Assembly (NCBI GenBank): GCA_963693055.1
Contig: OY843751.1
Coordinates: forward strand, 192,001-256,000
Direction: 5' to 3'
Origin: a bacterium
Lineage (GTDB): Bacteria > Zhuqueibacterota > Zhuqueibacteria > Residuimicrobiales > Krinioviventaceae
DNA length: 64,000 nt
The notes beneath the pieces were generated by a model that saw nothing but the letters and a program-made list of their open reading frames with translations, had not been told where the DNA came from and ran no database searches. Shown here piece after piece: positions 1,474-43,817 of this stretch. The stretch's first letter is position 1, and every line of letters begins with the position of its first letter. The position numbers were made by a program, and so were the translations under genes.

Positions 1474-1524
1474 CATTGGCATATGATTATTGATTGCTAT
1501 TTAAATTAATTGGAGGTGGCTTTG

Positions 1525-3810
1525 TTGCTAAAAAAATACAAGCTGGAGATAGTTCTGGTCCTTTTAATGGTTTTCTCTTTTTCCGTTGCGCATGCTGAAA
1601 GGCATCCGGAAAAAACAGACCAGCGTCGCGATTTTAAATTGCGCAAAACAAACAACCGCCCTGCACAGGAATTCAAGGCACATACTATTGGTACCATGTG
1701 GAATGTTATAACCAACTATGGTAGTTTTGGTGATCCTAACTTTGATTCCTCAGGTCGTCCTTCTGTTGAATGGCCGGGTGCATCGAACAACAGTTATTTG
1801 TATGATGCAGCTATTTGGGTTTCAACAGTATTGAATGGTGAAAAATTATGTTCAAGTTATTTTTATACATTTGAAGAATGGGAACCCTCTGATGGTTCCC
1901 AGTTTTTAATGGGTAATGAAGAAGTGGTTGCTGTAGCAACTCCTAAATCTATCAATGACAGTTACTGTGTATTTGATGATCTTGAACCAAAGACTGAGCA
2001 TGTGCCCCTGGGTATCCAGGTTGTTGAACGTGGACTCTCCTGGAGCATGCCGGAATATGATGACTTTATTGCATATGAATTTGATATTATTAATACCGGT
2101 ACAAACGGTTTTCTCAAAGAAGTATATGTAAGCTGGTGGTATGATGTAGACGTTTCTTCTATCGACGTTACCGATAAACATATCGATGACCTTGTAGACT
2201 GGGACGGATACGATGGTTCAGATACCAACACTGACAAAGTCGATATAGTTGACCCCCTTGATCTTGATCAGGATGGCATTTCCGGTTATGATGATTATGG
2301 TATCCCTTATGGTCTCCCCATGGGCGGATTTAATGACAACTATGATCTTGAACAGGTTGAAGGTGATGGTGTTTTTGATGAATATACTCTTATTGAAGAT
2401 GAACGTGGTGATGCTATAACAGCAGATGTTGCCGTTACTATTGGTGATTATGAAATTGCTGCCGGTGATCCACTTGTAAAAGCTGACGGAACTCCATTGA
2501 TCGGTTGGAAAGTGTCACGTAATATGTCTTACATTTATGATGGCGATAACCCCAGTTCTTCTGAGAACGATTTTGGTGAACGTACTCTGAGTCCTGATTG
2601 TTCAGGTTTCATGGGTGGGCGTGTACTGTATGCAGATGCTGCATCTCCAGACTATGTGTTTGACGTACAAGATTCTTCACATTCCCGTATAACCCGCGCT
2701 TTTTCACACCAGTGGTGGAACTGGGAAAGTGATCCTGACACTGATATCGAGCAATATGACTATCAAAAAGGTCAGCACGAATTTAGTAAAGGTTATCACT
2801 TTTTGCCAAACCCATTGGATGTAGGTGCACCTACATTTGACTATCGTTTTTTAATTACCGTAGGGCCGTATGATATGGAAGCCAATGACACCGTACGTGT
2901 GGTTTGGGCAGAAGTTGTCGGTCAAGGTCTTGAAGGTATGCGCGCAAATGCTGATAAAGCTTTGGAAGCGTATTATACTGGTAGTGAGTTCAGCAGTCCA
3001 TATAATCCTACTCCGCCACATCAGGATACACACTGGCTGTTGCCTGCACCTCCTCCTACACCAAACCTGCGTTACAGTCCGAATGATCGTTCTGTGAATT
3101 TGGTATGGGATAATATTGCAGAAATTACACCCGATACAAAAACCAAAGAAATCGATTTTGTCGGTTATAAAATTTATCGTGCACAATATACTCCAAGCAA
3201 CTGGACACTCATTGCTGCATTTGATAATGTTGATGGACCCGTCAAAGTTGTAAATACAGAACGCGATTCTTTGGGTTATGTTGATCTGGATGATATTGCA
3301 AATGAATTTGTTGACGTTGGTGGTACTACACCATGGGGCACAACGATAGAAGCGCCTATTAATGGTATTCCTTATTTCTATACAGTTGTTGCTTATGATA
3401 CCGGTGATGAAACTATAAATTTACCGCCATCTGAAAGCAGTAAATCCAATTACAGCAAAACCGAAGCAGGTGCACCACTTGCTGTAATACCGAAACGTAT
3501 GTATGAAACTGAAGAAGTAGTTGATTTACAGAAAGTTAAAGTTGTTCCCAATCCATACAAGGCAACAGATGTTTTTGAAGACATTTATGAAAACGCAATA
3601 CTTTTTACAAACTTGCCTCCTGTATGTAAAATTACTGTTTTTACTCTTGCTGGTGATATGGTTATTTCCCTTGATCATACAGATGGCAGTAGTGTGGAAA
3701 CCTGGGATTTAATATCCAGGAACACTCAGTCAGTAGTAAGTGGATTGTATGTGTATGTGGTTGAAACGGAAAATGACAAGTTTGTCGGCAAGTTTGTAAT
3801 TATGATGTAA
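1525..3810 (+). CDS. Secreted acidic protein: unnamed N-terminal domain, FN3-like domain and variant T9SS-like C-terminal domain (VKVVPNPY); conserved partner of TBDR/PorV
   Basis: SD GGAGGT at 1512-1517 favours TTG 1522/1525 over 1510. Signal peptide ends ...VAHA. FN3-like region PPPTPNL...VNLVWD...GYKIYR...YFYTVVAYD. Tail KVKVVPNPY...ILFTNLP...WDL...SGLYVYVV...GKFVIMM. Confidence 0.8.
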   Translation: MLKKYKLEIVLVLLMVFSFSVAHAERHPEKTDQRRDFKLRKTNNRPAQEFKAHTIGTMWNVITNYGSFGDPNFDSSGRPSVEWPGASNNSYLYDAAIWVSTVLNGEKLCSSYFYTFEEWEPSDGSQFLMGNEEVVAVATPKSINDSYCVFDDLEPKTEHVPLGIQVVERGLSWSMPEYDDFIAYEFDIINTGTNGFLKEVYVSWWYDVDVSSIDVTDKHIDDLVDWDGYDGSDTNTDKVDIVDPLDLDQDGISGYDDYGIPYGLPMGGFNDNYDLEQVEGDGVFDEYTLIEDERGDAITADVAVTIGDYEIAAGDPLVKADGTPLIGWKVSRNMSYIYDGDNPSSSENDFGERTLSPDCSGFMGGRVLYADAASPDYVFDVQDSSHSRITRAFSHQWWNWESDPDTDIEQYDYQKGQHEFSKGYHFLPNPLDVGAPTFDYRFLITVGPYDMEANDTVRVVWAEVVGQGLEGMRANADKALEAYYTGSEFSSPYNPTPPHQDTHWLLPAPPPTPNLRYSPNDRSVNLVWDNIAEITPDTKTKEIDFVGYKIYRAQYTPSNWTLIAAFDNVDGPVKVVNTERDSLGYVDLDDIANEFVDVGGTTPWGTTIEAPINGIPYFYTVVAYDTGDETINLPPSESSKSNYSKTEAGAPLAVIPKRMYETEEVVDLQKVKVVPNPYKATDVFEDIYENAILFTNLPPVCKITVFTLAGDMVISLDHTDGSSVETWDLISRNTQSVVSGLYVYVVETENDKFVGKFVIMM

Positions 3811-3871
3811 CGTATTGCTGCCTTTGTTTTTCTATTGTAGAATGCAAATCATAATAAAGAGGTTATTACTA

Positions 3872-4903
3872 ATGAAGAAAAAATTTACTGCTTTATTGTG
3901 CATCACCTTAATGTTTGGATTGGTTCATGTTTTACCCGCCCAACAATTTGCCAAGGTTGGTACAGCTGGTTCTCAGTTTCTGAAAATTGGCGCCGGCGCG
4001 AGAAATGTTGGGCTTGGAAATGCATGTGTCGCCGTTGTTGATGATGCGTCTTCCATGTTTTGGAATCCTGGCGGTTTAGCCATGGTTAAAAATTATAATG
4101 TGTTGATTTCTAATGTTCAATGGTTCGCTGATATTCAAATGAATGTAGTGGGTATTGCAAAAACTTTTCCTTCTCTGGGCTCTTTTGGTTTGAGTGCCAT
4201 GGTGCTTGGTTCCGGAGATATGGATATTACTACATATAAATTTCAGGATGGTACCGGCGAACAATTTTCTAAAAATGATATGATGGTTGGTTTGAGTTAT
4301 GCAAGATATCTGACTGACAAATTTTCATTTGGTGGTACTATAAAATATATTCGTGAAGATTATGGCTCTGTAAATGATTATACCGGTGAAGATGAAATTG
4401 CTTCCGCATGGTCTTTTGATTTAGGTGCTATTTATCAAACAGGTTTCAAGTCTTTGCGTTTAGGTATTGCTATTATGAACTTTGGTCCTGAAATGCAGAT
4501 TCCTGGTCAATATGCTGATATTGTTGGTTTCGATTCTGATACTCAACAATATATTACTGAGCCATATGATGATTATCGCCCCTATCATTTGCCTTTGATC
4601 TTTAGAGCAGGTTTTGCTTATGACCTGTTTGATTCTCCTCTGAACAAGTTTACTGTTTCCGGTGACCTGGTTCACCCCAATGACAATGTGGAACAGATAA
4701 ATCTGGGAGGTGAATATTGGTTTAAAAATAGTATAGCCTTCCGTGGCGGTTATATCGGAAATCATGATTCTGCCAACTTTTCAGTTGGTGGTAGTTTGCG
4801 TTTGAGTTTGAGTGGACTGGGTGCTGCAAGCATCGATTACAGTTATACCGATTTTGGTGTGCTGGATTTGGTCCACCAGATGGCTTTTTCTTTGGAATTC
4901 TAA
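3872..4903 (+). CDS. PorV/PorQ family outer-membrane beta-barrel (FadL-like, T9SS shuttle/anchor type)
   Basis: ATG 3872 follows AGAGG. Signal peptide, then the hallmark KVGTAGSQFLKIGAGARNVGLG...DASSMFWNPGGLA. Ends in Phe. Confidence 0.9.
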   Translation: MKKKFTALLCITLMFGLVHVLPAQQFAKVGTAGSQFLKIGAGARNVGLGNACVAVVDDASSMFWNPGGLAMVKNYNVLISNVQWFADIQMNVVGIAKTFPSLGSFGLSAMVLGSGDMDITTYKFQDGTGEQFSKNDMMVGLSYARYLTDKFSFGGTIKYIREDYGSVNDYTGEDEIASAWSFDLGAIYQTGFKSLRLGIAIMNFGPEMQIPGQYADIVGFDSDTQQYITEPYDDYRPYHLPLIFRAGFAYDLFDSPLNKFTVSGDLVHPNDNVEQINLGGEYWFKNSIAFRGGYIGNHDSANFSVGGSLRLSLSGLGAASIDYSYTDFGVLDLVHQMAFSLEF

Positions 4904-4959: not shown

Positions 4960-7900
4960 ATGTTTAAAAAATTATCTGTAATTTTCCTTATGCTTTTATT
5001 TATGGGAAATGCATTATATGCCCAAACAGTTGGCGAGTCCAGATTGTTGTGGGTACATAATTATCAGTTTTTCCAGTATGATTACAAAATTGGTGCAACT
5101 TTGGCCGCAACTGGTGAAAATTGTGATGTTTGGGTAGAAAACAACCTGATCACTGCTATCACAGTTGATGAAACCAATGGTGTTGTTTATGCGGGCACCA
5201 AACGAACGGGTATTTTTTCAAAAGGATTGAACGAAACAACCTGGACCAGCCTGAGCGATGGCCATCCAAACAGTTCAAGAACTTTTGGGAAAAGCCCGGT
5301 TAATACAATGTTTGTCACATCTGACGGTACTGTTTTGGCTGGTCTGGACGATGGTATTTATCGTTGGGATGTTGAAGGCGCTCGCTGGAGACGTGCTACT
5401 GTTCGTACTCCTGTCTTTTGTTTCGCTGAAGCAAATGGCATTGTTTATGCCGGTCTTGGCGGTTATGTTTGGGCAGATGATGGCGATGAAGATAGTGACA
5501 TCGATATTGATGCTGGTGTTTATGCCAGTGACAATGGCGGTACTTCATGGGACCGTATGTCAAACGGTTTACCCAAAGATGGCGATGACGAGTATTTACC
5601 AGTAAACGCACTTTCAGTTGTAGATGGTTCTGTAATGGCTGCTACTGAAGCCGGTGTATTTTTGACAAAAAATCAAGGCGCTTACTGGCAGGGTGTTGAA
5701 CGTAAAATTACAGCAACCAAAGCGAATACGGTTGTAAATGTTTTCGAATCTACTCTTGATGAAGCCAAACTTGCTGAACTGGGCCGCGCGTTGTGGGACC
5801 CCAATACAGGTGAAATTTACGATAACTGGTTTGCGGTAGATGGCATTAGCCGCGAAGACAAAGTTGTTCTCGTTGAATATGACAGTTTGGATCAACCCTA
5901 TAGAAAATTTATTTGTCCACCCAATGATATTGAAACCACAAATTGGTTGTATGAACAAAGAAATACTGAAGGTATTGTGGGTGATGAAGGTTTGTGGAAT
6001 ATTAAAATTAATGATAATACACAAGACTTTACAACATACACTGGTTATGGCCCTTTTCCTGGTATTGATGTAAATGATTTCAAATTTCATGGCGAATCGG
6101 CAAAAGCTACAATAATTGATCCTCTTGCTGAGATATTGATTGTTGTTTCTTATCCTGAAGATCCCAATTTTGAAGTGGGTGGTAAATTTATCAATGTTAA
6201 ATATACTGATGGAACCAACACCTGGGTTTGGACCGCAAAATCTACTTCTTTACGCGGTTTGAACAATGAGAAAAAGGGTATTATAATTAATAATGATAAC
6301 CTGGTTTCTGGTGAAGAAATTGAAAATTATGATGAATTCAATACCACTGAAATAATTGGCCAGATGGAACTTTATACCTCCAGTGGCCTGGTGTTTAATA
6401 AAATGGCATATGCCGGTAATGACCAGGTTGTTTATGCCGGTAATGAAAACGGTGTTTATAAAACATCGGATATGGGACTTTCCTGGGACCTCGTTGGTTC
6501 TGTAACTGAAGGTCTTGAGAATATTGACATTCAAAGTTTGACAGCATTAGCAGACGGTTCTCTCTATGCCGGTACAATGGATAATGTTTTCAAAAGCACA
6601 ACAGGCGGAACCTCCTGGGAAGCGCTGGGAACCATTGATGCTGAAACAGAAGTGTTTAGTGTTAATGTTATCAATAACACCTTGTATGCAGGAACACCTT
6701 ATGGTTTTTATGAAACTGCAGACAATGGTGCAACATGGACAGGTTCAAACTTTGGAATGCCTGCTTATGTAAATGAAGAAAATATCCAAACTTTGATTAA
6801 TTATTTTGACAATTCTACTCCTGCAAATCCTTCAATGGGTGTTTATGATGTAATTGCGCAGCAGTTTGGTGAAGAAAACATCCCTGACATGGACAAGAAT
6901 AACAAAATAAGCATCCTTTTGCATAATATTGAAGATATAGGTTACGAAGAAAATCTGACATCTAACGGTTTGAGCGGAACAACCAATATTGCCGGTTATT
7001 TCCGTCCTGAAGATCAGAACCTGATTGGAAATACCAATAAAGGCGAGTTCCTTTATATTGATTCCCGTCAGGCAACAGATGCTCAACGTGCTGCGGCTTT
7101 GGGACATCAATTGCTTCGACTGATGCACTGGAACAATGATTATGATGAGCAAAGATGGGTAACCGAAGGTATTGGTTTTATGGCAGAACGCCTTTGTGGA
7201 TTTCCCTTACCATCATCAATGCCCGATTTTCAGACTTTGACAGGTGCAGCCAATGTTTACAGTCTTGTTGCGGGTACTGCATTGAGTCCATGGTCTGTAA
7301 GTCCTGATGATGGTGACATGAATAACCGTTTCACCCAGGTTTCCATGTTCTTTACATATCTTTTTGAAAACTTTGGCGGATTTGACCTTTTCAATAAAAT
7401 TATTGCTGATGAAGACAATGGCTGGGAAGGTATTCAAAATGTATTGCAAGCCGAATATGGCAAGAATTTCGATGATGTTTATGCTGCCTGGGTAATTGCA
7501 AACTGTATCAATGATGTAAATCAATCTGACCCCATATCTGGTGCTAAATATGGATATCAGGATTCTTTATATTCTGCAGTTTTGAACAATTATATGGATG
7601 AAAAAGGTCTGGGTATGAATTATGGTAACCTTTTTGGTCATAATAGTTCAATGTCTGAATATAAAGAATATAAAGTTTTACAGGAATATGGACAAGGACT
7701 GAATAACTGGGCATATACTGTTCGCTATTTGTTCCCTGATCCCAGTATCTTTGCAGACAATCCTGTACAATCCGTAATAAATTATTGGGACAAAGATCTC
7801 AAAACCGGTGAACCCATTAATATGAAAATCAATGCCAGTGATTATGCAAATCTGCGGGTGCACCTGATCAAAGTTAAACCAGATGGCTCCAAAGATGTAG

Positions 7901-9117
7901 AAAATATTACTTCTTTGTTTAATGAGGAAAAAGAGTTATCTTTTAACGTCTTGGATAAATATGAACCCAACGCAGACAAGACATCTTTAAAGTACCATGA
8001 AATGTATGTAGTTGTCAGTAACCAGGATTCTTTGGGACGTGGTGTTAAATATTTGCAACTCAAAGATGTAACACCACCAGAAGTTGATTATCAGATTGTT
8101 CATAACCCATTGTATCCTGAATTTGTTGATATTTTAATATCAGCCAATGAACATACTTTTTCAGACATTGGTACTGAATTTGAAAACCCAACAGTAGAAA
8201 TGGTTTATTTCACTGATACAACAGCAGTAGATATTTCATTGTTTGACAACATTGATCCAAAATCAAGTGGAAGTGGTGCAGATATACAAAGTGAATACTT
8301 TGTTTACAAAGGCCGCTATCATTTAACTGAAGAAGGTCAGGTAAGCCTGGTTATTCGTAAACTTCAGGATTGTGCGGGTAATGATAATGATGAAATTGTA
8401 GCACCATTATCAGTTTCAAAAGCATTACCCAAATTTTCAACAACCCTGGTAACAGATGATGAAAATGCTTCTATGGTTATTCCTGCGAATACATTTTTGT
8501 CTGAAACATATTTGACACTGTTTACAAACAAACCCGATACAAGGGTTGGATTGCAAAAGTCAGATGCCGATGATTATGAATTTGTAAGCGATCTTTATCA
8601 ATTCGGACCTGTTAATAAAAGTTTGAATAATAATGCGGCTTTAAGCATCAAATATTCAAAAGATGCTGTGTCAAATGACTTTGGCTTGTATCGTCTGCAA
8701 AATGATGAATGGATATCAGTGCCAGCTATGATTAACGAGAAACAAGGTACAATTTCTGCCAGTGTAAATGAACTGGGTGTATTTGCTGTAATTTCTGGTA
8801 ATGTTGCTAATCAGAGCATTGAAACAGAACAAGTACCAACAACCTATGCCGTTTATCAGAACTACCCTAATCCGTTTAATCCCACCACTGAAATTAAATA
8901 TCAGGTGCCTCAACAGGAACGTGTTGTTATTCGTATTTACAACATGAATGGTCAATTGGTAAATACTCTGGTTGATCAGAATATGAGTGCCGGTTATTAC
9001 ACTGCAAAGTGGAATGGATTGAATGCAAGAGGTGCCAGAGTAAGTAGTGGCGTTTACGTATATGAAATGCGTGCTGGCAGCTATGTAGAAACACGGAAAA
9101 TGGTTCTGATAAAATAA
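4960..9117 (+). CDS. Large secreted T9SS-CTD protein: degenerate M30/hyicolysin-like metallopeptidase domain interrupted by a BNR beta-propeller, plus ZU5-like and FlgD-Ig/CTD domains
   Basis: SD GGAGG and a signal peptide. Asp-box/BNR repeats SDNGGTSW, TSDMGLSW, STTGGTSW, TADNGATW. Peptidase-like motifs DMDKNNKISIL, IAGYF, GEFLYID and HQLLR...WVTEG. CTD QNYPNPFNPTTEIKY...RKMVLIK. Confidence 0.8.
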   Translation: MFKKLSVIFLMLLFMGNALYAQTVGESRLLWVHNYQFFQYDYKIGATLAATGENCDVWVENNLITAITVDETNGVVYAGTKRTGIFSKGLNETTWTSLSDGHPNSSRTFGKSPVNTMFVTSDGTVLAGLDDGIYRWDVEGARWRRATVRTPVFCFAEANGIVYAGLGGYVWADDGDEDSDIDIDAGVYASDNGGTSWDRMSNGLPKDGDDEYLPVNALSVVDGSVMAATEAGVFLTKNQGAYWQGVERKITATKANTVVNVFESTLDEAKLAELGRALWDPNTGEIYDNWFAVDGISREDKVVLVEYDSLDQPYRKFICPPNDIETTNWLYEQRNTEGIVGDEGLWNIKINDNTQDFTTYTGYGPFPGIDVNDFKFHGESAKATIIDPLAEILIVVSYPEDPNFEVGGKFINVKYTDGTNTWVWTAKSTSLRGLNNEKKGIIINNDNLVSGEEIENYDEFNTTEIIGQMELYTSSGLVFNKMAYAGNDQVVYAGNENGVYKTSDMGLSWDLVGSVTEGLENIDIQSLTALADGSLYAGTMDNVFKSTTGGTSWEALGTIDAETEVFSVNVINNTLYAGTPYGFYETADNGATWTGSNFGMPAYVNEENIQTLINYFDNSTPANPSMGVYDVIAQQFGEENIPDMDKNNKISILLHNIEDIGYEENLTSNGLSGTTNIAGYFRPEDQNLIGNTNKGEFLYIDSRQATDAQRAAALGHQLLRLMHWNNDYDEQRWVTEGIGFMAERLCGFPLPSSMPDFQTLTGAANVYSLVAGTALSPWSVSPDDGDMNNRFTQVSMFFTYLFENFGGFDLFNKIIADEDNGWEGIQNVLQAEYGKNFDDVYAAWVIANCINDVNQSDPISGAKYGYQDSLYSAVLNNYMDEKGLGMNYGNLFGHNSSMSEYKEYKVLQEYGQGLNNWAYTVRYLFPDPSIFADNPVQSVINYWDKDLKTGEPINMKINASDYANLRVHLIKVKPDGSKDVENITSLFNEEKELSFNVLDKYEPNADKTSLKYHEMYVVVSNQDSLGRGVKYLQLKDVTPPEVDYQIVHNPLYPEFVDILISANEHTFSDIGTEFENPTVEMVYFTDTTAVDISLFDNIDPKSSGSGADIQSEYFVYKGRYHLTEEGQVSLVIRKLQDCAGNDNDEIVAPLSVSKALPKFSTTLVTDDENASMVIPANTFLSETYLTLFTNKPDTRVGLQKSDADDYEFVSDLYQFGPVNKSLNNNAALSIKYSKDAVSNDFGLYRLQNDEWISVPAMINEKQGTISASVNELGVFAVISGNVANQSIETEQVPTTYAVYQNYPNPFNPTTEIKYQVPQQERVVIRIYNMNGQLVNTLVDQNMSAGYYTAKWNGLNARGARVSSGVYVYEMRAGSYVETRKMVLIK

Positions 9118-9157
9118 TGTTGTTTATTTAATTTGCTATAGATTTAAGGAGGCATTG

Positions 9158-10474
9158 ATGATTCAGATTACTCGAAACAAAGACCTGGCGGCAAGATCGG
9201 TTTTTGTTCTCATTGCAATCGTTACTTTGATGGTCTTGTTTGGTTGTTCTGACAAATCAGATAATATACCTACAACCGCACAGTCTGTTGAAGGTTTAAT
9301 AGTAGAAGGCTGGACAGCCTACCAAAATGGTGATTATGAAGCTGCTGTGGCAAACTTTGAAGCTACTTTACAAAGAAACGTTTCACCTGAACTTTCTATT
9401 GATGCATATAGAGGTTTAGGCTGGACCTATAGCAGACTTGAAAAATATGCTCAGGCAATAACAAACTTTAGTTTTGTTATTAGTCTTGAATCTGTTAGCA
9501 GCAGCCGGTTTCCGGTTGTTGCTAAAGAAGGAGTTGAAGCTTATGCCGTGCCAGATACTCAATATGTAGATGTGAACGGTGAGCTGCAGCTTATGACAGA
9601 TGAATATATTGTATCAATTGACGATATTGACAGTTATAGTGCACGTGTTACCCAAAAAATGGGAGCTTCACCTGCTTTTGAACTTGACCCGGGAACGCGT
9701 GTGATCAATTTACCCAAATCAGAGCTCAGTAATGCATCTTCAACAGCACTGGGTAATGCATTGGATAATTCTCTGAGTTTTAATCCTGCAACATTTACTA
9801 CTGCTGTAGCTTCTGAAGAAGAGTTGACTGCTTTGGATCAATATTACATTGATACACAAACGGGAGTTCTTTCTATTGTACCGCGTGTAGAAACCCTTAA
9901 GGAAATTGAAGCTATTTTTACGTATCATGAAAAAGGCTATCTTATTGACAGATATACCAATCGTTTTATTGTTTTAAATGAAGAACTTGAAGATTTAAGT
10001 GATGCTCCTAAAGATGAACCAGGTGATATCTATTATATCAAGGGTGATTTTTACAATAAATACGATGCCAATAATCCTCAGAGTGGTGGTACATATATGC
10101 AAGCCGATGCTTATGCAGGCATGTCTGCAGCTTATCTTGCACAAGGTGATTATGCTTCGGCACTTGAAGCAAGCCGGGCTTTGATGTACATCAACCAGGA
10201 TTTAAAAGCCCTGGATAGTGGTAATTATCCATATCAACGTAATCTGTTCGACGGTGATACAGACTATAATATGTGGGATTTTTACAAAGTAATGGCTATT
10301 TGTTATTATAATATTAATGATTATTTAAGTGCTGAAGAATGTTTAGAGGTTTATCTGGGTCAGGGAGATGTAGTTGATAATACCAGAACTGATTTCTCAT
10401 TCAACTTGATTTCTTTGATTAATGGCCTGAGTGATACTCCTCCAGCGGATTGGAGTCCTAAAGATATTTTTTAA
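9158..10474 (+). CDS. TPR-containing lipoprotein
   Basis: SD AAGGAGG at 9146-9152 favours ATG 9158. Lipobox LFGC. TPR-like helices GWTAYQNGDYEAAVANF, DAYRGLGWTY and DAYAGMSAAYLAQGDY. Confidence 0.8.
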   Translation: MIQITRNKDLAARSVFVLIAIVTLMVLFGCSDKSDNIPTTAQSVEGLIVEGWTAYQNGDYEAAVANFEATLQRNVSPELSIDAYRGLGWTYSRLEKYAQAITNFSFVISLESVSSSRFPVVAKEGVEAYAVPDTQYVDVNGELQLMTDEYIVSIDDIDSYSARVTQKMGASPAFELDPGTRVINLPKSELSNASSTALGNALDNSLSFNPATFTTAVASEEELTALDQYYIDTQTGVLSIVPRVETLKEIEAIFTYHEKGYLIDRYTNRFIVLNEELEDLSDAPKDEPGDIYYIKGDFYNKYDANNPQSGGTYMQADAYAGMSAAYLAQGDYASALEASRALMYINQDLKALDSGNYPYQRNLFDGDTDYNMWDFYKVMAICYYNINDYLSAEECLEVYLGQGDVVDNTRTDFSFNLISLINGLSDTPPADWSPKDIF

Positions 10475-10532: not shown

Positions 10533-10609
10533 GCGAGCAAAAATTTTGTTGTAATACTTAAACTTGTTGGTAAGAGTTAATTCACTGATTTTTTAAATTG
10601 GGAGGAATT

Positions 10610-13369
10610 ATGAAAAAGGTAAATTCCTTATTGTTACTGTTTGTTGTATTTTCTTTAATTATGGCTTCCGGAGCAAGTGCTCAGTTAAAATTAGCAAAAA
10701 TTGCTGATCCTGATCCTGTATCCGAAGTTAGTGTAACTGCTTTTACAAAACCCGGTGGTATTGATGTAGGTGATGCTATGCCGCGTGCATTCCACTATGG
10801 TGGTCGTCACTCTGCTCGTACTTCTGATGGTCTGCTCCACACTACATGGGAAGATCCTGGTTACGATTTCCCATACTATGCACATTCAACAGATGAATTG
10901 GGCCTGGAATGGACTGAACCTATGAACATCCCTGACGCCATTGGTTATACCGGATGGAGCCGTAGTTTAATGGCTAAATTGTCTATTGATCCGACCAATG
11001 ACGATATCTATCTGTTGCCTGCTATTCAGATTACAGGTGGTGTATGGCGTACCCAGTTGACCCGTTCTACTGATGGCGGTGCAACATGGACACCTTTTAT
11101 GGACCTGGGTAACAAAATCAATGTTCCTACTGCTGAAGTATCTTGGGCAACTATGACAATTGGTTCAGACCGTGTTGTTCATATTACTTATGCTAAACAA
11201 AATCAGGACATGTTCTATACCAAAGCTGATCTGTCTGCTGCAGATGGTGCTGCTGATTTGGAAAATCTTGTATTTACCAAATCTGACGGTTCTATTGGTG
11301 CAGAAGCTATCAGTTTTGTTCCCAGTGGTGTTGTATTCCAGGGAACTGTTTTACTTGATCGCAACAACGATCCCCACATCATCTTTTCTGGTGACGGTGG
11401 TTCTGATACATTTGGTGATAAAACTCCTTATCACATTTATTACAAATCAGCAGCCCAGGCATGGGGCCCCATTCCTCCAACCCGCTTGAGAGCAGAATTG
11501 GAAGACTGCTGGGGTATGCCTGAAATGGTTTTTGATAAAAATAACCGTGGTTACTATTTCATGGATGGTTATGAAGCAGAAACCGTATGGTTTGGTACCT
11601 GGGAACCCCCAACGGATGCTACAAGTGCAACCGATTTTGGTTCATTGAACAATGGCGAAGGTTACGAAGGTGCTGTTCAGTTTAATTCTGACAACTATGC
11701 CAACATTCCAGTTGTTAACGATGATCATCTGTATCTGCCAAACGCAGATGTTGATGATGTAAACGACATTGTTTATGTTGTAATGAATACCAACTGGTAC
11801 GAAAACTTTGTTGGTGGTGGTGGCGATATTGTTGCATTGAAACTTGTTGATGCTACCAGCTATGCTGGTTCTGGACCTGCTGATATGGATTGGGAATTGC
11901 ATCGTTGGATTACCCAGGATGGTAACTCTCCTTTGGGTGATCAGGGTTGTGATGTTGTTTACGATCCTTCAAGAACTACTCTTGATGTTTTCTGGTCTGC
12001 TGCAGGTGCTCCTTTCAATAAAGCACAGTTTATTGATGCTACAGCAGTTATTCCTGAAATTGATGCAAAACCACAAACTCTTGATTTTGGTTTGACTGTC
12101 AACAACCCAATTAACAAAGGCGAAACTATTGTAATGACCGGTACGGTTAAAAACAATGGTACCAGTTCTTTGGGCCCTGTACCTGTATCATTGGTTATTA
12201 CCAATGAATCTGGTGATACTTTGTACACCAAATCTGATCAAACTCCTCCATTGTTGGCAGGCGCGGAAAGCCGTCAGTTAACATTGGGTGAATTTACCGT
12301 TCCTACTGAAAAAGAATTCTATAACATTTATTTTACTTCTCTTTACAATGGTGACGGTGCTGCTTATAACGATGTTGTAAGCTCTGGCTTTTACGCCTAT
12401 CCTTCATTGGATGAAGTAACTGTTTTTGAAACTTTCCAGGAATTTCTGAATCCTGATGAAGATGGTGATCATAACTGGTTCCCATTCCCAACCTGGTCTG
12501 AAAAAGCAACTTATAGTGATGACCTGGATCTTGGCGGTTGGACTGCAGTTGACAGTGCAAACGGCGAAGAGTTTGACTGGTTAAACACCTGGTTTGTAAA
12601 TGACGAAGATGAACCCAATAACATTGGTGGTTACATCCGTCATATGTCTGGTATTCGTAATGATAGCTTGTATGGTGACATGCCTACTGGTACCATTCCA
12701 CAACCACAAAACGAATTGTTGTACAGCCCGGTTTATGATCTCGATACTCCTGATGGTTACGGCACTTTTCTGGAATTTACCAGTAAAATTGGTGGAACCG
12801 ATGGTGATGACAATTACCCAATTCATGCTTGGGTAGATGTGTCTGTAGACGGTGGTGAAACTTGGCAAGAAGTAATTCATAGAGACAAAACTGTTGGCGG
12901 TGCTACTGAAGCTATTTCCCACAGTATTGAATATACATCTTATGATATTACAAATGCTGTTGGTAATGCATCTTCTGCACAGTTCCGTTTCTGGTGGAAA
13001 AACCTCAACAATGACGGTGGCTTTGCTACCTGGTTTGTTGATAACGTAACTGTTATTGCTCGTCCAGTTGATGGCATTATTAGCTCTGATAATGATGCTG
13101 TTATTGATGGTTACAAACTGTCACAGAACTATCCGAATCCATTCAACCCAACTACTGACATTCAATTCACCATGCCGGCTAGTGGTAAAGCAAAACTGAC
13201 CATTTACAATGTAACCGGTCAGCAAGTTGCTAAATTGATCGATGGTACTGTAGCTCAAGGTACTCATACCGTTCGTTTTGACGCTCAAAATCTGCCTACT
13301 GGTGTTTATTTCTATAAATTCCAGACAGAAAATTTTGAATCCGTTAAAAAGATGGCTTTGATGAAATAA
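10610..13369 (+). CDS. Secreted T9SS-CTD protein: BNR/sialidase-like propeller, CARDB/Ig-like and MAM/cleaved-adhesin-like jelly-roll domains
   Basis: GGAGG-aatt-ATG start. Signal peptide ...ASA/Q. Asp-boxes RSTDGGATW and SVDGGETW. Jelly-roll end QFRFWW...WFVDNV. CTD QNYPNPFNPTT...KKMALMK. Confidence 0.8.
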   Translation: MKKVNSLLLLFVVFSLIMASGASAQLKLAKIADPDPVSEVSVTAFTKPGGIDVGDAMPRAFHYGGRHSARTSDGLLHTTWEDPGYDFPYYAHSTDELGLEWTEPMNIPDAIGYTGWSRSLMAKLSIDPTNDDIYLLPAIQITGGVWRTQLTRSTDGGATWTPFMDLGNKINVPTAEVSWATMTIGSDRVVHITYAKQNQDMFYTKADLSAADGAADLENLVFTKSDGSIGAEAISFVPSGVVFQGTVLLDRNNDPHIIFSGDGGSDTFGDKTPYHIYYKSAAQAWGPIPPTRLRAELEDCWGMPEMVFDKNNRGYYFMDGYEAETVWFGTWEPPTDATSATDFGSLNNGEGYEGAVQFNSDNYANIPVVNDDHLYLPNADVDDVNDIVYVVMNTNWYENFVGGGGDIVALKLVDATSYAGSGPADMDWELHRWITQDGNSPLGDQGCDVVYDPSRTTLDVFWSAAGAPFNKAQFIDATAVIPEIDAKPQTLDFGLTVNNPINKGETIVMTGTVKNNGTSSLGPVPVSLVITNESGDTLYTKSDQTPPLLAGAESRQLTLGEFTVPTEKEFYNIYFTSLYNGDGAAYNDVVSSGFYAYPSLDEVTVFETFQEFLNPDEDGDHNWFPFPTWSEKATYSDDLDLGGWTAVDSANGEEFDWLNTWFVNDEDEPNNIGGYIRHMSGIRNDSLYGDMPTGTIPQPQNELLYSPVYDLDTPDGYGTFLEFTSKIGGTDGDDNYPIHAWVDVSVDGGETWQEVIHRDKTVGGATEAISHSIEYTSYDITNAVGNASSAQFRFWWKNLNNDGGFATWFVDNVTVIARPVDGIISSDNDAVIDGYKLSQNYPNPFNPTTDIQFTMPASGKAKLTIYNVTGQQVAKLIDGTVAQGTHTVRFDAQNLPTGVYFYKFQTENFESVKKMALMK

Positions 13370-13379
13370 ATTATTCATG

Positions 13380-13458: not shown

Positions 13459-16400
13459 ATGACAAAAAATAAATTGGTTGTGCTGTTTTTATCTTTGGTA
13501 TTGTTGTTAACGTTTACAACAATGTCATTTGCAAAAAATACTGGTCCAAAAAAAGTTGTAGAAAAAAATACTGTTAGAGACGGGAATTTTAAAGTTTTTT
13601 CAGTGCAAGCTGACACTCCTGAACAATCCCGTTATTTATCAAAAAAAGCTGCTAAAGAAAGTCGTCTTTCCAAACAATATGTAATCAATAGTAATCTGGA
13701 AAGAAGTTACCTTAATTCTACTGAAAAATTATCCATCCCTCTTCTTAATGAAGTCCCTGGTGGCGGTGCTATTCATTCTGTATGGAATGTTTCATTTGAT
13801 TATGAAGATGATTTTAATACCTTTACACCTGTTGACTTGAGTGAAAATGGCGCTGGTAATGATTGGTTCTGGTTGGATTACGTTGGTATGTTTGGATGGC
13901 CAGAAAGTGACCGCGGTTCAAACTCTGCATTCGCTCCAGAACCCGGTGGTGATATTGGCGGTGATGTTGTTTCCAAAGATGAAGCAATCGACATCAAAGT
14001 TGGTATCCCTAAAATGAGTAGTGAAGGTGAAGCTTATCGAGTTTCTAATTTAATGTTAGAACTTTATATCGGTGAACCTGATCCTGATGACTTTTTGAGT
14101 GTTGAAATTCTTGAAGCACCAAAATGGCATGTTACTGATGATGCTGTTTGGACAATGAATTCTGATCAGGTTTATGCGGAAGAAGGCGCAGCTGGTTATG
14201 ACAATGCGTTTGTTGAAAATTTGGTTTCAACACCCATTTCTGTACCTGCAGGTGCTACCTTGTCATTTCAACATATGATTAATTCAGAAGGTGAGTGGGA
14301 TGGAGCCAATGTTAAAGTTTCAGCTGACAATGGCGAAACCTGGGAAGTAATTACACCCGCTGAAGGTTATGATATTGATAATCTTTACTCATTTTCATAC
14401 CATGGTGGCATTGCAAATGGTGTAGATGCTGATCCTGATGTTGCATATGATTGGGATGAACCTGGTTTTACTGGTCATTATGACTGGACACCTGTGAGCT
14501 TTGATCTTTCTGCCTACGAAGGCCAGACAATCATTATCAAATGGCAGTTTACTTCTGACGGTATGACTGTTGAAGATGATGGTGGTTGGTGGATTGATGA
14601 CATTGTTGTTACTGACGGCACAACTGCTGTTTTTGAAAACGATGGTGTTGATGATGGTTCATTAATTGCTGAAAGACAAGGTCCCGGATATATTGGCGAA
14701 CCTTGGGTTACTTTGAGTAAATGGTCTGCTATTGGTGGTGGTTCTAATGGCGTTGTTTCTGCAAACCTGAATCTTACTTCTAATATCATCGGTGCACCTG
14801 GCGATTCTGCAACTTTTCGTTTCCGTGCTTATTTCGATGATAATGATGAAGGTGATGGTGCTGACCCGAACTGGGGTTTTGAAGTTTCTGATGCCATTCT
14901 TGAAGTTTATACCCGTTACTCTGTTGATTTGGGTGTATCTTTTGTTGACCTAGATTCTACTTTTTCTAAAAATGAATTTATCACTGTTGGTGAAACACTT
15001 GATCCTCAACTCGTTGTTTCTAATTATGGACTAAGTGATGTAACTATTTATAATACGTTTGTAAAAATTGTAAACAATTTTGGTAGCACAGTTTATGAAC
15101 GTTACCTTTATACATATGCTCCTGCACAGGGTGATACATTGGATCTTTATCCTGGAACTCAGGAATTTGGCGAAGGTATGGGATTTTATGATTTCCCGGA
15201 TTGGACACCGGAATATCAGGGTGATTATACTTTGATCGCTTATACCGAGATTTTTGGTGGTGATGATGAACCTGCTGATGATTCATTAGTAGTCGATTTT
15301 CATGTTTACGGTGAAGATCCTGCAATTGCAGAGAATTTCAATACCATGACAAGCGATGAACTTTATGCTAACTGGGAATTTGAAGGTGCTCTTGATCAAG
15401 CTAATTCATGGTATATTGGCGATTCCTTTGGCAAAGGTGATAATGAACTCTGGATCCTCAAATATGGTGATGACCTGTCTTTTGATGAACAGATCGTTAC
15501 ACCTGTAATGGACTGCTCAGAAATGACAGATGTTGCATTAAAATTGGAACATCATATTAGTGGTAGTGTTACTGATCCTTTTGAAGCTAAAATTATTATA
15601 TCTACCGATGGTGGTGCTACTTTTCAAGACTTTAAGGTCTTTACAGAAGCGACACCTGTTGCTGAAAGAAGAGGCATTTTTACATATGATGTCTCCAGTA
15701 TTGTAGATGGTAAAGCCGCTGTACAAATTGGTTTTACATACAAGACTGATGCCAAACTTGCTGCTGCTGGTGGATATTTGTATTTCACCGTTGATGATCT
15801 TTCTGTTTATCCAAGCGCTAGTTTAGACATAACAGATCCTGGTACTCCTGTTAATTTCGCAGGCGTAGCTGGTGATATGCAAGTTGATTTGACCTGGTCT
15901 GGTCTTGAAACTGCTTCTTATTACTCTATTTTGGCTGCCGACACCAATGATGTTGCTGTAGCTGAAGTTGTAGCTGAAGTATCTGATTCTATGGCTACTA
16001 TTGATGGTTTGACCAATGGTGAAACCATGTATTTTTGGGTTACCAGTACAGATTTTAATGACAATGAATCTGCTCCATCAGAATCTGTTGAATTGACCCC
16101 TGCAGACGTTACTGCTCCTACTCAGATCACAGATTTGCATGCTGCTGACGTTGATGGCGAAACTGCAAAACTGTTGACCTGGACTGCTCCGGTTGAAACT
16201 GCTCCAGCAGAAGGTACTGTTTACGAGATCCGTTATGCTTATATGCCCATTACCCCTGCAACATGGGATGATGCAATGGCTCTCGATGAAGTTCCAGAAG
16301 TTGCTGCTGCCGGCACAGAACAGTCTTTGACTGTACCTGTAGATCGTTTGCAAGATTACTATTTTGACGTATACTTTGCAATTAAAACTACTGATGAAGT

Positions 16401-17106
16401 TGGTAATGTTTCTGAAATGTCTAATCCTGCACATGCTGATGATATTCTTCCTGGAAACGTTGTTGACCTTACTGTAGTTGATGTTACTGAAGAAGATGTT
16501 ACTCTGTCCTGGACAGCTCCTGGTGATGATGGTGTTGTCGCTGGTGGTCCTGTTTGGGGATATCAGGTTCGCGTTGCTTATGATTCTTTAGGTGACGAGT
16601 TTACTGGTTGGGAATCTGCTCAGATTTTGACTGACGTTCCTGCTCCTTCAGCTCCTGGTGAAACAGAGTATTATACCGCTGTAGAATTTGTTTATACTGA
16701 TTACGGCCAGACTTTTGGTATCGTTGCAATTGACTGGAATGGTAATGTTTCTGAAGTTATTGGAATGGCTTATGCTCCTTCATGGGACAATTTCAATCCA
16801 CAAGCTGTTGAAGAAAACACAATTCCTGAAACTTTTGCTTTGAACCAGAACTATCCTAACCCGTTCAACCCAACTACTTCTATCTCTTACCAATTGCCCA
16901 ATACTACCCACGTTAAACTGGAAGTATTTGGAACAAATGGTCAAAAGATCAGAACTTTGGTTAACGGTACAATGTCCGCTGGAAATCACAATGTACAGTG
17001 GGATGCAATGGATGCACGTGGCATGAAAGTAGCCAGTGGTATCTATTTCTATCGCCTTGAAACCAGTGCTTTCACAAGCGTTAAAAAGATGACCTTGATG
17101 AAATAA
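13459..17106 (+). CDS. Secreted T9SS-CTD adhesin-like protein: several MAM/InhA-type jelly-roll domains, CARDB-like domain and three FN3 repeats
   Basis: SD AAGGAG and a signal peptide. Jelly-roll motifs WDGANVKVSADNGETW and GWWIDDIVV. FN3 motifs LTWSG, LTWTAP, LSWTAPGDDG. CTD QNYPNPFNPTT...KKMTLMK. Confidence 0.8.
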   Translation: MTKNKLVVLFLSLVLLLTFTTMSFAKNTGPKKVVEKNTVRDGNFKVFSVQADTPEQSRYLSKKAAKESRLSKQYVINSNLERSYLNSTEKLSIPLLNEVPGGGAIHSVWNVSFDYEDDFNTFTPVDLSENGAGNDWFWLDYVGMFGWPESDRGSNSAFAPEPGGDIGGDVVSKDEAIDIKVGIPKMSSEGEAYRVSNLMLELYIGEPDPDDFLSVEILEAPKWHVTDDAVWTMNSDQVYAEEGAAGYDNAFVENLVSTPISVPAGATLSFQHMINSEGEWDGANVKVSADNGETWEVITPAEGYDIDNLYSFSYHGGIANGVDADPDVAYDWDEPGFTGHYDWTPVSFDLSAYEGQTIIIKWQFTSDGMTVEDDGGWWIDDIVVTDGTTAVFENDGVDDGSLIAERQGPGYIGEPWVTLSKWSAIGGGSNGVVSANLNLTSNIIGAPGDSATFRFRAYFDDNDEGDGADPNWGFEVSDAILEVYTRYSVDLGVSFVDLDSTFSKNEFITVGETLDPQLVVSNYGLSDVTIYNTFVKIVNNFGSTVYERYLYTYAPAQGDTLDLYPGTQEFGEGMGFYDFPDWTPEYQGDYTLIAYTEIFGGDDEPADDSLVVDFHVYGEDPAIAENFNTMTSDELYANWEFEGALDQANSWYIGDSFGKGDNELWILKYGDDLSFDEQIVTPVMDCSEMTDVALKLEHHISGSVTDPFEAKIIISTDGGATFQDFKVFTEATPVAERRGIFTYDVSSIVDGKAAVQIGFTYKTDAKLAAAGGYLYFTVDDLSVYPSASLDITDPGTPVNFAGVAGDMQVDLTWSGLETASYYSILAADTNDVAVAEVVAEVSDSMATIDGLTNGETMYFWVTSTDFNDNESAPSESVELTPADVTAPTQITDLHAADVDGETAKLLTWTAPVETAPAEGTVYEIRYAYMPITPATWDDAMALDEVPEVAAAGTEQSLTVPVDRLQDYYFDVYFAIKTTDEVGNVSEMSNPAHADDILPGNVVDLTVVDVTEEDVTLSWTAPGDDGVVAGGPVWGYQVRVAYDSLGDEFTGWESAQILTDVPAPSAPGETEYYTAVEFVYTDYGQTFGIVAIDWNGNVSEVIGMAYAPSWDNFNPQAVEENTIPETFALNQNYPNPFNPTTSISYQLPNTTHVKLEVFGTNGQKIRTLVNGTMSAGNHNVQWDAMDARGMKVASGIYFYRLETSAFTSVKKMTLMK

Positions 17107-17122
17107 GTACTGATTTGATTAT

Positions 17123-17163
17123 AAAAAAAAGGGCGCTGGTTTTAAACCGGCGCCCTTTTTTTT
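17123..17163. terminator. Bidirectional intrinsic terminator between convergent transcription units
   Basis: A8-GGGCGCTGGTTT-T-AAACCGGCGCCC-T8, lying between stop codons at 17106(+) and 17183(-). Confidence 0.93.
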
Positions 17164-17182
17164 GCTTTTACTAAATTCTGGA

Positions 17183-22947: not shown

Positions 22948-22976
22948 TTGATTGAAAATTTTTGTATTAATAAAAT
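22948..22976 (+). promoter_or_regulatory. Putative sigma70 promoter for the protease operon
   Basis: TTGATT (22948-22953), 17 nt spacer, TAAAAT (22971-22976), 23 nt before ATG 23000. Confidence 0.55.
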
Positions 22977-22999
22977 GGAAAGAATTTATTGAACTGATT

Positions 23000-43700: not shown

Positions 43701-43817
43701 GCTTATGAAATGAAGGGGATGATTAAAGAAGCTGTTACTGAACTGGACCGTGCATTGTTACTGGATCCCGATTATGAACCTGCCAGGAAAAAACGAGACC
43801 AGTTGAGCGGTCGTTAA
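40722..43817 (+). CDS. Fused multi-TM (MFS-like)/spermidine-synthase-like SAM-fold protein with C-terminal TPRs
   Basis: Duplicated membrane repeats LFSGISGLVYQVVW and GFSGLASLAYEILW, PTVLMGGTLP and PTLLMGATFP, LYSFNTLG and IYAANTIG. Soluble domain VLVVGFGFG, VELV, DGREYI, LYTLEFY. Several TPRs. Confidence 0.88.
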   Translation: MARNKNRREKESIQTEKRTQLVPLFWNYKIQILVLFLFLFSGISGLVYQVVWMRMLKLIFGVTAFAASTVVSAYMAGLSVGSWYFGKRADHSSSPLRLYGYLEVGVGLYALASLFIFKLLDQLYTLIYVAFSPNFAVFSIIRFVVAFIIILIPTVLMGGTLPILIKFFVNKKGHVGRLAGYLYSFNTLGAVIGAFVTGFFLIKLFGVQNTIFIAAAINILAGAGAILIGQFMLKSAKPVPESEIVEEQKITDKSEKRVFRLLLWGFGFSGLASLAYEILWTRSLLYFLGLTTYTFTTILTTFLVGIALGSFFTSRFVDKVKDHLKLFAVIEVLIGLSALAVIPLIGNMYDISNNLRMSLGYNDWWSNVGVKFLLSFLVMLVPTLLMGATFPIVVKSYNKSIKGIGENVGKIYAANTIGSIAGSFAAGFILIPFAGLRLSIAIVVMINLLVGLTVFLNHPDIKRNSRYVWSAIAILAMVLVAFNAKRDPIVLSSVEFEGSMKRYDLLHYKEGIDASIAVLEDRITGERELNINGESTAFTIYQDMQVHKLLGHLPLLIHPDPQDVLVVGFGFGSTSWASVLYPDVQVDCVELVKDEIDTAPFFEKQNHNVIDHPNYNLIIADGREYIKGTNKKYDVISFNAIHPKISPNLYTLEFYEMCKEILTDDGIIIAWLPPNAITELEYQSLINTFCHVYPHSSLWYVNPSHMLLMATMQPFEIDYERLLARLSIPEVNKDLREVNMEDPYELLSCFLIADENLYEYGEPAPINSDDLPFIEFSREMSVSVNTEVMTSLGYLKGSAWPYLYNVANPDTVQENLKRMDETKSLVSKGQVMAWMGEYDKAHEFYNQALEKSPGNRNTLYLDGLIDRRKSELEKMVQLNPRNARAHQALGEIYMDERNVQAAFQMFNKAVQLDPQYAQPHHHLGVIYYMQNRPDIALRELEQAQQLDPGYGASYFYAGMCYWKMGKLDPAFRNFKKATEVDFDFVPAHFYLAQAYEMKGMIKEAVTELDRALLLDPDYEPARKKRDQLSGR

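Follow-up and report, generated by a model that had tools for sequence, protein, structure and literature searches.

A catalytically degenerate M30-like domain in a predicted type IX secretion cargo encoded within a TonB-dependent receptor operon

Introduction

Records of pseudo-metallopeptidases come almost only from eukaryotes, and a 2024 review of pseudopeptidases (PMC11266112) contains no occurrence of M30 and two mentions of bacteria. According to that review, the alpha subunit of the mitochondrial processing peptidase (alpha-MPP, family M16) is a dead paralogue kept for substrate recognition, and it carries HxxDR where the beta subunit has HxxEH. Here we describe a bacterial protein, P0001, with the same His to Arg change at the second zinc ligand. 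It is encoded on a 64,000-nucleotide stretch of DNA (hereafter the window; assembly GCA_963693055.1, contig OY843751.1, positions 192,001 to 256,000 of the forward strand) from a member of the Krinioviventaceae (Zhuqueibacterota), and contains a catalytically degenerate domain of the lugdulysin type. Alpha-MPP is eukaryotic, has an unrelated inverzincin fold and forms a heterodimer with an active cousin, whereas the genome encoding P0001 holds no such cousin.

The domain shares with lugdulysin and hyicolysin (family M30) its fold, the scaffold motifs GYF...SN...Y.D, the zinc-site helix and W.NEG. Lugdulysin is a secreted Gram-positive enzyme of about 400 residues with HExxH, the Glu and Tyr315, whereas P0001 has HQxxR and Phe, and its domain is embedded at amino acids (aa) 601-1034 of a 1385-aa type IX secretion system (T9SS) cargo on which the Pfam M30 model, PF10460, is silent. 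By sequence P0001 belongs to an uncurated family, HE[FL]QH...W.NEG, of putative metalloproteases (5842 representatives, partly covered by NF045524). With intact family members of the same order it shares 25-29% identity over about 250 aa, and many of these bear T9SS C-terminal sorting domains (CTDs); unlike these, P0001 lies in a 20-row degenerate clade and is not matched by NF045524.

Dead metalloproteases are already known as T9SS cargo, and are curated for an M6-like family (NF052323, T9SS-dependent M6-like inactivated metalloprotease). P0001 resembles that family in being a T9SS type A cargo with a dead zinc-protease scaffold encoded after a PorV-family gene, but it is M30-like and not M6 and shows no NF052323 match at E<=0.1, nor any sequence match to that family outside the CTD; the near-member of NF052323 in the same genome adjoins canonical porV, unlike P0001, which belongs to a TonB-receptor cassette.

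SusC/SusD systems mediate outer-membrane uptake with the help of surface binding proteins. As in these systems, the operon of P0001 starts with the gene for a TonB-dependent receptor that has an N-terminal carboxypeptidase-regulatory-like domain, followed by genes for predicted surface proteins that are non-catalytic; unlike them, the operon has no SusD homologue, its partners carry T9SS CTDs in place of lipoprotein signals, and a PorV-family barrel forms part of the cassette. New here are the M30-like source family, how large and how old the dead clade is, its association with a TonB-receptor cassette and its lack of annotation. The dead clade is not captured by Pfam or NCBIfam, and no account of receptor-PorV cassettes or of a dead M30 domain was found in the limited literature collection searched.

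Results and discussion

The zinc site of P0001

P0001 is the product of an uninterrupted 1385-aa open reading frame (ORF) at window positions 4960-9117 on the forward strand, as given by the ORF list and its translation. Two profiles were used for its annotation: A1, made from the orthologues only, and A2, made from the window protein and its relatives including intact ones. The features of the gene are as follows.

4960-9117, + strand: gene for the 1385-aa pseudo-M30 T9SS cargo protein P0001 (ORF list, translation, colinear orthologues)
4960-5022, + strand: predicted Sec signal peptide, aa 1-21, MFKKLSVIFLMLLFMGNALYA followed by Q (read from sequence alone)
5032-6759, + strand: beta-propeller-like N-terminal region with an inserted segment, aa ~25-600 (profile A1 and NCBIfam F510_1955)
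6760-7659, + strand: M30-like (lugdulysin-type) gluzincin domain, catalytically degenerate, aa 601-900 (profile, model, Foldseek, VIA-align, dN/dS)
7105-7167, + strand: degenerate zinc-site motif H716-Q717-L-L-R720 ... E736 (translation and alignments)
7330-7332, + strand: codon of Phe791, site of the family's 99%-conserved Tyr, lugdulysin Y315 (alignments; synonymous TTC/TTT relative to the congener)
7660-8061, + strand: beta-rich subdomain after the peptidase-like core, aa 901-1034 (model secondary structure; within the family profile)
8062-8859, + strand: Ig-like or beta-sandwich spacer, aa 1035-1300 (colinear with the clade-B relative P0014; no family assigned)
8863-9105, + strand: T9SS type A C-terminal sorting domain, aa 1302-1382 (PF18962, TIGR04183)

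Bases 7105-7167 encode H716 to E736, inside the segment AALGHQLLRLMHWNNDYDEQRWVTEGIG at aa 712-739. The resemblance goes beyond chance: this segment aligns column for column with AHE[FL]QH[LM]IH ... E..W.NEG of 137 intact relatives, and also with the zinc-site helix of lugdulysin (PDB 7bb8/7bb9; profile alignment E 4.5e-25). The HExxH of M30 has become H716-Q717-L-L-R720, with both the catalytic Glu and the second His replaced. E736, the Glu of W.NEG, which by analogy with M1 peptidases and other gluzincins we take to be the third zinc ligand, is present in P0001 and invariant in 11 of 11 close relatives. The sequence-only reading from which this analysis started had placed a pseudo-protease motif at 7105-7167, with Glu changed to Gln, the second His to Arg and the distal Glu kept, in an otherwise intact 1385-aa ORF. 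These bases correspond exactly to H716-E736 and contain the string it had quoted, the alignments bear out the three assignments at 717, 720 and 736, and the frame is uninterrupted and colinear with the orthologues.

A further loss, absent from that reading, lies at the Tyr that is conserved in 99% of the 137 intact rows (lugdulysin Y315) and is Phe791 in P0001. Position 717 aligns with lugdulysin E242 and position 791 with Y315; the two replacements of the deposited lugdulysin mutant "E242Q Y315F" (7bb9) therefore occur naturally in P0001 as Q717 and F791, in addition to H720R. From usual practice we infer that the mutant was made to kill activity. Since the HExxH Glu is Gln, the second zinc His is Arg and the catalytic Tyr is Phe, P0001 is predicted to be proteolytically dead.

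Outside this domain, the N-terminus is hydrophobic and, read by eye, shows a putative signal peptide ending in LYA before Q. The CTD exceeds the cut-offs of both PF18962 (31.2 bits, cut-off 27) and TIGR04183 (37.2 bits, cut-off 23). Pfam and NCBIfam together matched only this T9SS type A CTD and part of the propeller-like region of P0001, the latter through F510_1955 at aa 534-596. Profile A1 matched the BNR-repeat propeller 3b7f (E 4e-8), the sensor-kinase propeller 3ott/3va6 and GH74 propellers.

Family assignment and fold

A search of the PDB with profile A2 retrieved the lugdulysin chains 7bb8 and 7bb9 (E 4.5e-25, profile positions 28-244), whose entry titles name the Staphylococcus lugdunensis M30 zinc metallopeptidase, and intact HEFQH relatives from the same order matched P0001 by tblastn at E ~1e-26. 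When aa 601-1047 were excised and compared with Pfam and NCBIfam, no peptidase family was reported even at E up to 10, so that the label "M30-like" had to be tested by independent means. The NCBIfam model for the MXAN_6640 putative metalloproteases, NF045524, gave no match to the window domain at E<=10; on the intact relatives it scored 43-52 bits, under its 140-bit cut-off. A PF10460 search of the genome found nothing, but the control genomes were equally silent, so that this result is uninformative.

A first structure model, based on a 10-row alignment, was discarded owing to its predicted local distance difference test score (pLDDT) of 44.4. The second, an AlphaFold model on 56 rows, reached a pLDDT of 81.3 and a predicted template modelling score (pTM) of 0.85. 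With this model, the sole strong Foldseek matches were 7bb8_A (E 8.5e-10, probability 1.00) and 7bb9, the next match having an E-value of 2.7e-3. VIA-align superposed the model on lugdulysin with a Z-score of 23.8 and a root-mean-square deviation of 3.0 Å over 276 residues; the next families were the M1 aminopeptidases (Z 11.7) and thermolysin-type enzymes (~9). These comparisons support a gluzincin fold that is closest to the M30 peptidase lugdulysin. The sequence-only reading had proposed a structure model of the Zn site as a check; a zincin fold was recovered, and the designation of the domain as M30-like stands on the profile, Foldseek and VIA-align results; curated M30 membership does not follow, PF10460 being silent.

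Relatives and origin of the degenerate clade

A word-seeded search returned nine full-length relatives outside the cluster of the query, namely eight orthologues with 55-63% identity over aa 600-1000 and one protein at 37%. The orthologues of P0001 are 1231-1388 aa long and colinear, with the reading frame intact in all. In the 10-row alignment of these proteins H716, E730, W733, E736 and G737 are invariant and H723 is variable, position 717 is Q in nine rows and N in one, and position 720 is R in eight, K in one and N in one. HExxH is thus degenerate in a conserved way across orthologues, which had been put forward as a check on the pseudo-protease assignment.

The genome of the window and 40 relatives were then searched, and 24 of the 41 genomes contained a match. 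The stronger matches (59-99% identity) are orthologues, and the weaker ones (28-34%) are of two kinds. In the intact kind, of which 11 loci were fetched (L007, L009, L010, L014-L021), the domain lies about 120 aa from the N-terminus and reads AHE[FL]QH[LM][IL]H ... W[VI][ND]EG ... DY in 11 of 11. The degenerate kind comprises proteins of 1376-1385 aa with the domain at about aa 600-700, reading ADNFQR...WLVEG (L008) or ATYFTN...WLTQG (L011/L012). The intact HEFQH paralogues of the same order (L014-L021, P0019, P0022) are T9SS cargos of ~1270-1460 aa that consist of an N-terminal peptidase domain, a purple-acid-phosphatase-N-like domain, a BNR propeller and Big_5 domains; the propeller follows the peptidase domain in the live form and precedes it in the dead form.

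Profile A2 retrieved 5842 representatives with an E-value of 0.001 or less, 619 of them at E<=1e-30, and the 150 best representatives were aligned with the orthologues to give a family alignment of 158 rows. The four zinc-site positions read H-E-H-E in 137 of these rows and not in the other 21; 13 of the 150 best representatives are degenerate. At 42 positions, conservation among the 137 intact rows reaches 80% or more, and these served as the conserved set. Both degenerate subclades retain the scaffold positions G627, G637, D645, G679, N693, Y699, D701, D727, E730, G747, Y800 and G806, and the losses fall at E717, H720, H723, Q719 and Y791. The subclade that includes P0001 (HQ subclade, 11 rows) keeps H716 and E736 in all 11 rows, with Q (10) or N (1) at 717 and R (8), K (1) or N (2) at 720. 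The sister subclade (nine rows) has lost H716 as well, in eight of nine, and has Arg at 720 in four of nine. In the intact rows the domain lies ~100-140 aa from the N-terminus, whereas the degenerate clade has an N-terminal extension of 570-725 aa. Public records of dead-clade proteins (labelled KSB1, Calditrichota and Neomarinimicrobiota) name them only as "T9SS type A sorting domain-containing protein".

A FastTree phylogeny of the 158 rows unites 20 of the 21 degenerate rows in a single group, with a local support of 97. An IQ-TREE analysis that left out the motif columns and took 67 rows (the 21 degenerate ones and 46 of the 137 intact) gave this group a Shimodaira-Hasegawa-like approximate likelihood ratio test (SH-aLRT) support of 82 and its two subclades 100 and 99. 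Both trees are unrooted, and the change is read as a loss because 137 rows and lugdulysin are intact. From aa 604 onwards P0001 is colinear with the clade-B protein P0014 up to the C-terminus (24% identity, E 3e-51), and their N-terminal 600-700 aa are unrelated. The degenerate forms from seven other genomes that were fetched, which represent both subclades, are all encoded in the same slot of the operon. Trees, colinearity and operon slot agree with one old loss event. The remaining degenerate row, P0148 (HQxxH), falls outside the group. This 808-aa metagenome protein reads AHQYQH; its sole change is Glu to Gln, and it retains the two His, the distal Glu and the Tyr. Nested among intact members, it represents an independent, minimal inactivation in the same family.

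Selection on the domain

The ratio of non-synonymous to synonymous substitution rates (dN/dS) was calculated by the Nei-Gojobori method between the window genome and its congener G001 over 1285 codons (aa 101-1385), which differ by 186.5 synonymous and 44.5 non-synonymous changes. It was 0.055 over these codons and 0.016 for aa 601-900; the propeller part gave 0.08 and the Ig-like region, the least constrained, 0.12. Synonymous changes hit the codons of R720, E730 and F791. Among orthologues the M30-like domain is again the most conserved part, with 59-63% identity versus 49-57% over the full length. These observations support strong purifying selection on the dead domain, the most constrained part of the protein, and with the frame intact in the orthologues they sustain the earlier suggestion that the inactivated peptidase is kept. 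P0001 is thus a pseudopeptidase in the accepted sense, that is, a homologue of an active family in which catalytic residues are replaced and which is kept by selection.

The operon

The gene for P0001 is the fourth of seven in an operon, the other members of which are listed here.

1-1473, + strand: 3' part of the gene for the TonB-dependent receptor of the operon (1061 aa in full, with CarbopepD_reg_2, Plug and barrel)
1510-3810, + strand: 766-aa protein, the cassette's partner "X", with a marginal T9SS CTD as its only known domain
3815-4903, + strand: PorV/PorQ-family outer-membrane barrel, likely start ATG 3872 (NF033709)
9155-10474, + strand: TPR protein with a lipobox-like LFGC signal
10598-13369, + strand: BNR/Reelin-subrepeat protein with T9SS CTD, no HExxH
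13459-17106, + strand: InhA-like MAM and fn3 protein with T9SS CTD, no HExxH

The order is therefore receptor, 766-aa CTD protein, PorV-family barrel, P0001, TPR protein, BNR-CTD protein and InhA-MAM/fn3-CTD protein, with intergenic gaps of 4-123 nucleotides. Strong terminator-like hairpins were found at 13377 and 17122-17164 and none before 13377. The P0001 gene had been described as lying directly downstream of a TonB-dependent receptor and PorV; both are indeed in the operon, but the 766-aa CTD protein separates the receptor from the PorV-like gene. HExxH is absent from all seven operon proteins, four CTD proteins among them. The barrel scored 205 bits with NF033709 (cut-off 90) and fell under the cut-offs of PorV, PorQ and PorV2 proper. 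For the 766-aa neighbour no relative was found in the PDB, and its nearest ESM Atlas clusters are labelled only "hypothetical". In RNA library X1, one 341-nucleotide contig at 6438-6778 with five differences, and a few contigs elsewhere in the operon, were found; they stem from a close relative, could represent DNA carry-over, and are no evidence of transcription.

Four genomes from three other genera show synteny across all seven genes, and the neighbours of P0001 are 44-80% identical there. On the stretches fetched, three more distant genomes encode the 766-aa protein (46-47% identity), the PorV-like protein (41-42%), a degenerate M30-like protein (24-29%) and the TPR protein (33-36%), and the receptor (44%) is present in the two of these whose contigs reach it. 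Profile A2 gave a single match in the genome of the window, the dead copy, and no intact M30-like paralogue; genomes of genus g5 have an intact copy in addition to a dead one.

Receptor-partner-PorV cassettes

The T9SS core was searched for in the genome as SprA, PorU and the PorV family. SprA (661.7 bits) and two copies of PorU (882.6 and 876.3 bits) were found, along with 26 PorV/PorQ-family matches, 22 of them above the cut-off. The PorU copies are two tandem full-length sortase genes (G000:C1:6252356-6259881; 876 and 883 bits, cut-off 420). Three more long proteins have partial PorU-like matches, two of them adjoining PorV-family genes, at 4294945-4300055 and at 5656747-5661283, the latter near SprA.

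The surroundings of the PorV-family genes were counted on a crude gene set of 5013 ORFs with a home-made CTD profile (239 ORFs) and a phmmer receptor screen (43), so that the counts rest on rough gene calls and profiles. A receptor lies within three genes of 12 of the 26 PorV-family genes (random mean 1.3; 0 of 5000 draws reach 12), and a CTD gene within two genes of 17 of the 26 (random mean 4.0; 0 of 5000 draws reach 17). The order receptor, partner, PorV-family gene holds in ten of the 12. By paralogy the partners divide into a group of seven proteins of 685-732 aa and a group of four proteins of 766-1280 aa, the latter including that of the window. The receptor-partner-PorV cassette is thus a repeated unit, of which the window operon is one copy; no other of the 12 has an M30-like protein. 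The expansion of the PorV family possibly reflects a T9SS-linked uptake module.

The best PorV candidate of the genome (NF033710 242.6 bits, cut-off 250; G000:C1:3064398-3068411 region, L030:8396-12490, - strand) is followed by the 964-aa near-member of NF052323 (558 bits, cut-off 600), which lacks HExxH. A 1000-aa TolB-like propeller protein comes next.

Proposed role of P0001

P0001 is very probably a dead protease homologue kept by selection. Taken as a whole, the reading we favour, and consider probable with appreciable doubt, is that its lugdulysin-type domain is proteolytically dead and contributes binding or scaffolding, without catalysis, to the TonB-dependent-receptor operon. On its own, such a role in capture or scaffolding is tentative, and we would place its chance slightly short of even; it fits a context in which the operon CTD proteins lack HExxH and active T9SS proteases are encoded 6 kb downstream. 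The T9SS would export P0001 for display at the cell surface, where the operon's own PorV-family barrel may hold it. Arg720 may sit where the lost zinc would have been, across from the retained Glu736; Arg or Lys occurs at this position in nine of the 11 rows of the HQ subclade. The retained cleft would bind a polypeptide, as the simplest case, or another polymer and hand it to the receptor, and the cutting would fall to active T9SS proteases of the M6, S8 and C25 families, whose genes lie 6-30 kb downstream.

The most serious alternative, unlikely in our estimate, is that P0001 is a structural part of a PorV-linked sorting or anchoring complex and not a nutrient binder: an analogue of PorZ or of the M6-like inactivated metalloprotease, held on the cell surface by the operon barrel and required for assembling or attaching the remaining CTD proteins of the cassette. 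In this genome the best PorV candidate directly precedes a dead M6-like CTD protein, the near-member of NF052323, just as the PorV-family gene of the window operon directly precedes a dead metalloprotease CTD protein, and the enrichment of CTD genes beside PorV-family genes (17 of 26 against a random mean of 4.0) is in keeping with such a role. However, receptor genes head this operon and 11 other PorV cassettes, which points to transport and not to secretion machinery, and P0001 matches neither NF052323 nor the PorZ models outside its CTD. Because only one of the 12 cassettes has an M30-like protein, it is not a general machine part. It is less likely again that the functional part is the N-terminal propeller, acting as an adhesin for glycans or cell surfaces, with the dead M30-like domain as an inherited rigid spacer. 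The resemblance of the propeller region to BNR, GH74-type and glycan-sensor propellers would suit this, as would the finding that clade B swapped the N-terminal 600-700 aa and kept the dead domain, which is expected if the N-terminal module sets specificity. For a mere spacer, though, it is unexpected that the M30-like core is the slowest-evolving part (dN/dS 0.016, against 0.08 for the propeller and 0.12 for the spacer) and the most conserved among orthologues (59-63% against 49-57% overall).

Residual enzyme activity, in which His716, Glu736 and either D727 or E730 would hold a metal with no canonical general base, seems very improbable. H716, D727, E730 and E736 are invariant in the 11 HQ-subclade rows and selection on the domain is very strong, but the HExxH Glu, the second His, His723 and the Tyr, which are 92-100% conserved in the 137 intact relatives, are all replaced in P0001; two of these changes, Glu to Gln and Tyr to Phe, are those of the lugdulysin mutant 7bb9, presumably inactive, and His716 itself is lost in eight of the nine sister-subclade rows. 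We likewise give little credence to P0001 as a decoy or regulator that would bind the substrates, inhibitors or pro-forms of active protease cousins. Pseudopeptidases often regulate active relatives, according to PMC11266112, and genus g5 genomes hold dead and intact copies; this genome, however, has no intact M30-like copy, and the dead form is tied to the receptor operon and not to the locus of the intact paralogue.

Several points weigh against the binding or scaffold reading that we prefer. Neither P0001 as a single sequence, which gave no PDB match for the M30-like domain, nor profile A1, which gave propeller and CTD matches only, reached lugdulysin, and the link to that enzyme is therefore transitive, via the intact relatives; PF10460 was silent on P0001 in the Pfam-A scan. 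The fold match depends in part on the sequence evidence and is not fully independent of it, because the alignment behind the model is dominated by intact enzymes. The dN/dS values come from one genome pair. Since His716 and Glu736 are kept, a weakened metal site may persist. The identity of the M30-like protein to its distant-lineage counterparts is 24-29%, versus 41-47% for its operon neighbours; because P0001 diverges faster than these neighbours and its N-terminal 600 aa are not common to clade B, it may be that lineages differ in their ligand, or that binding resides in the propeller. The nearest solved relatives of the propeller are glycan-directed proteins, which weakens the case for a peptide as the ligand. 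Binding, surface display and inactivity of P0001 are predictions.

A bolder version of the same proposal, speculative and in our view rather doubtful, is that the dead M30 domain is the substrate-capturing arm of an undescribed outer-membrane uptake machine, a T9SS-dependent counterpart of SusC/SusD. Such a machine would combine a TonB-dependent receptor with T9SS-delivered partners held at the surface by a cassette-specific PorV-family barrel, and the window cassette would have recruited the protease scaffold without its chemistry in order to hold polypeptides for import. If the binding role is true, a protease scaffold has been reused for substrate capture and T9SS cargo is linked to TonB-dependent import. 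The dead M30-like clade is in any case bacterial, old, diversified and very strongly constrained, and it is fixed in one TonB-receptor operon slot across at least three families of an order. The natural Glu to Gln, His to Arg and Tyr to Phe set, together with the intact paralogues of sister genera, offers a ready test system.

Other features of the window and genome

Downstream of the operon, positions 20341-46105 of the window hold a battery of protein-degradation genes.

20341-22830, - strand: second TonB-dependent receptor
22952-25777 and 25839-28646: intact M6 peptidases with CTD (HELGH and HEFGH, respectively)
28652-32680, 32715-36797 and 43874-46105: S8 subtilases with CTD
36794-40651: C25 peptidase with CTD

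The C25 protein at 36794-40651 was considered as the sortase PorU and rejected, as it scored 118 bits against a cut-off of 420. At 40722-43817, a 1031-aa ORF joins a major facilitator superfamily (MFS) transporter-like part, a spermine/spermidine synthase-like part and many TPR matches in an unusual fusion. In the 6.5-Mb genome as a whole, about 239 ORFs end in a T9SS-CTD-like domain as judged by the home-made profile, which was built from ten CTDs of the window, and this represents a very large predicted cargo set.

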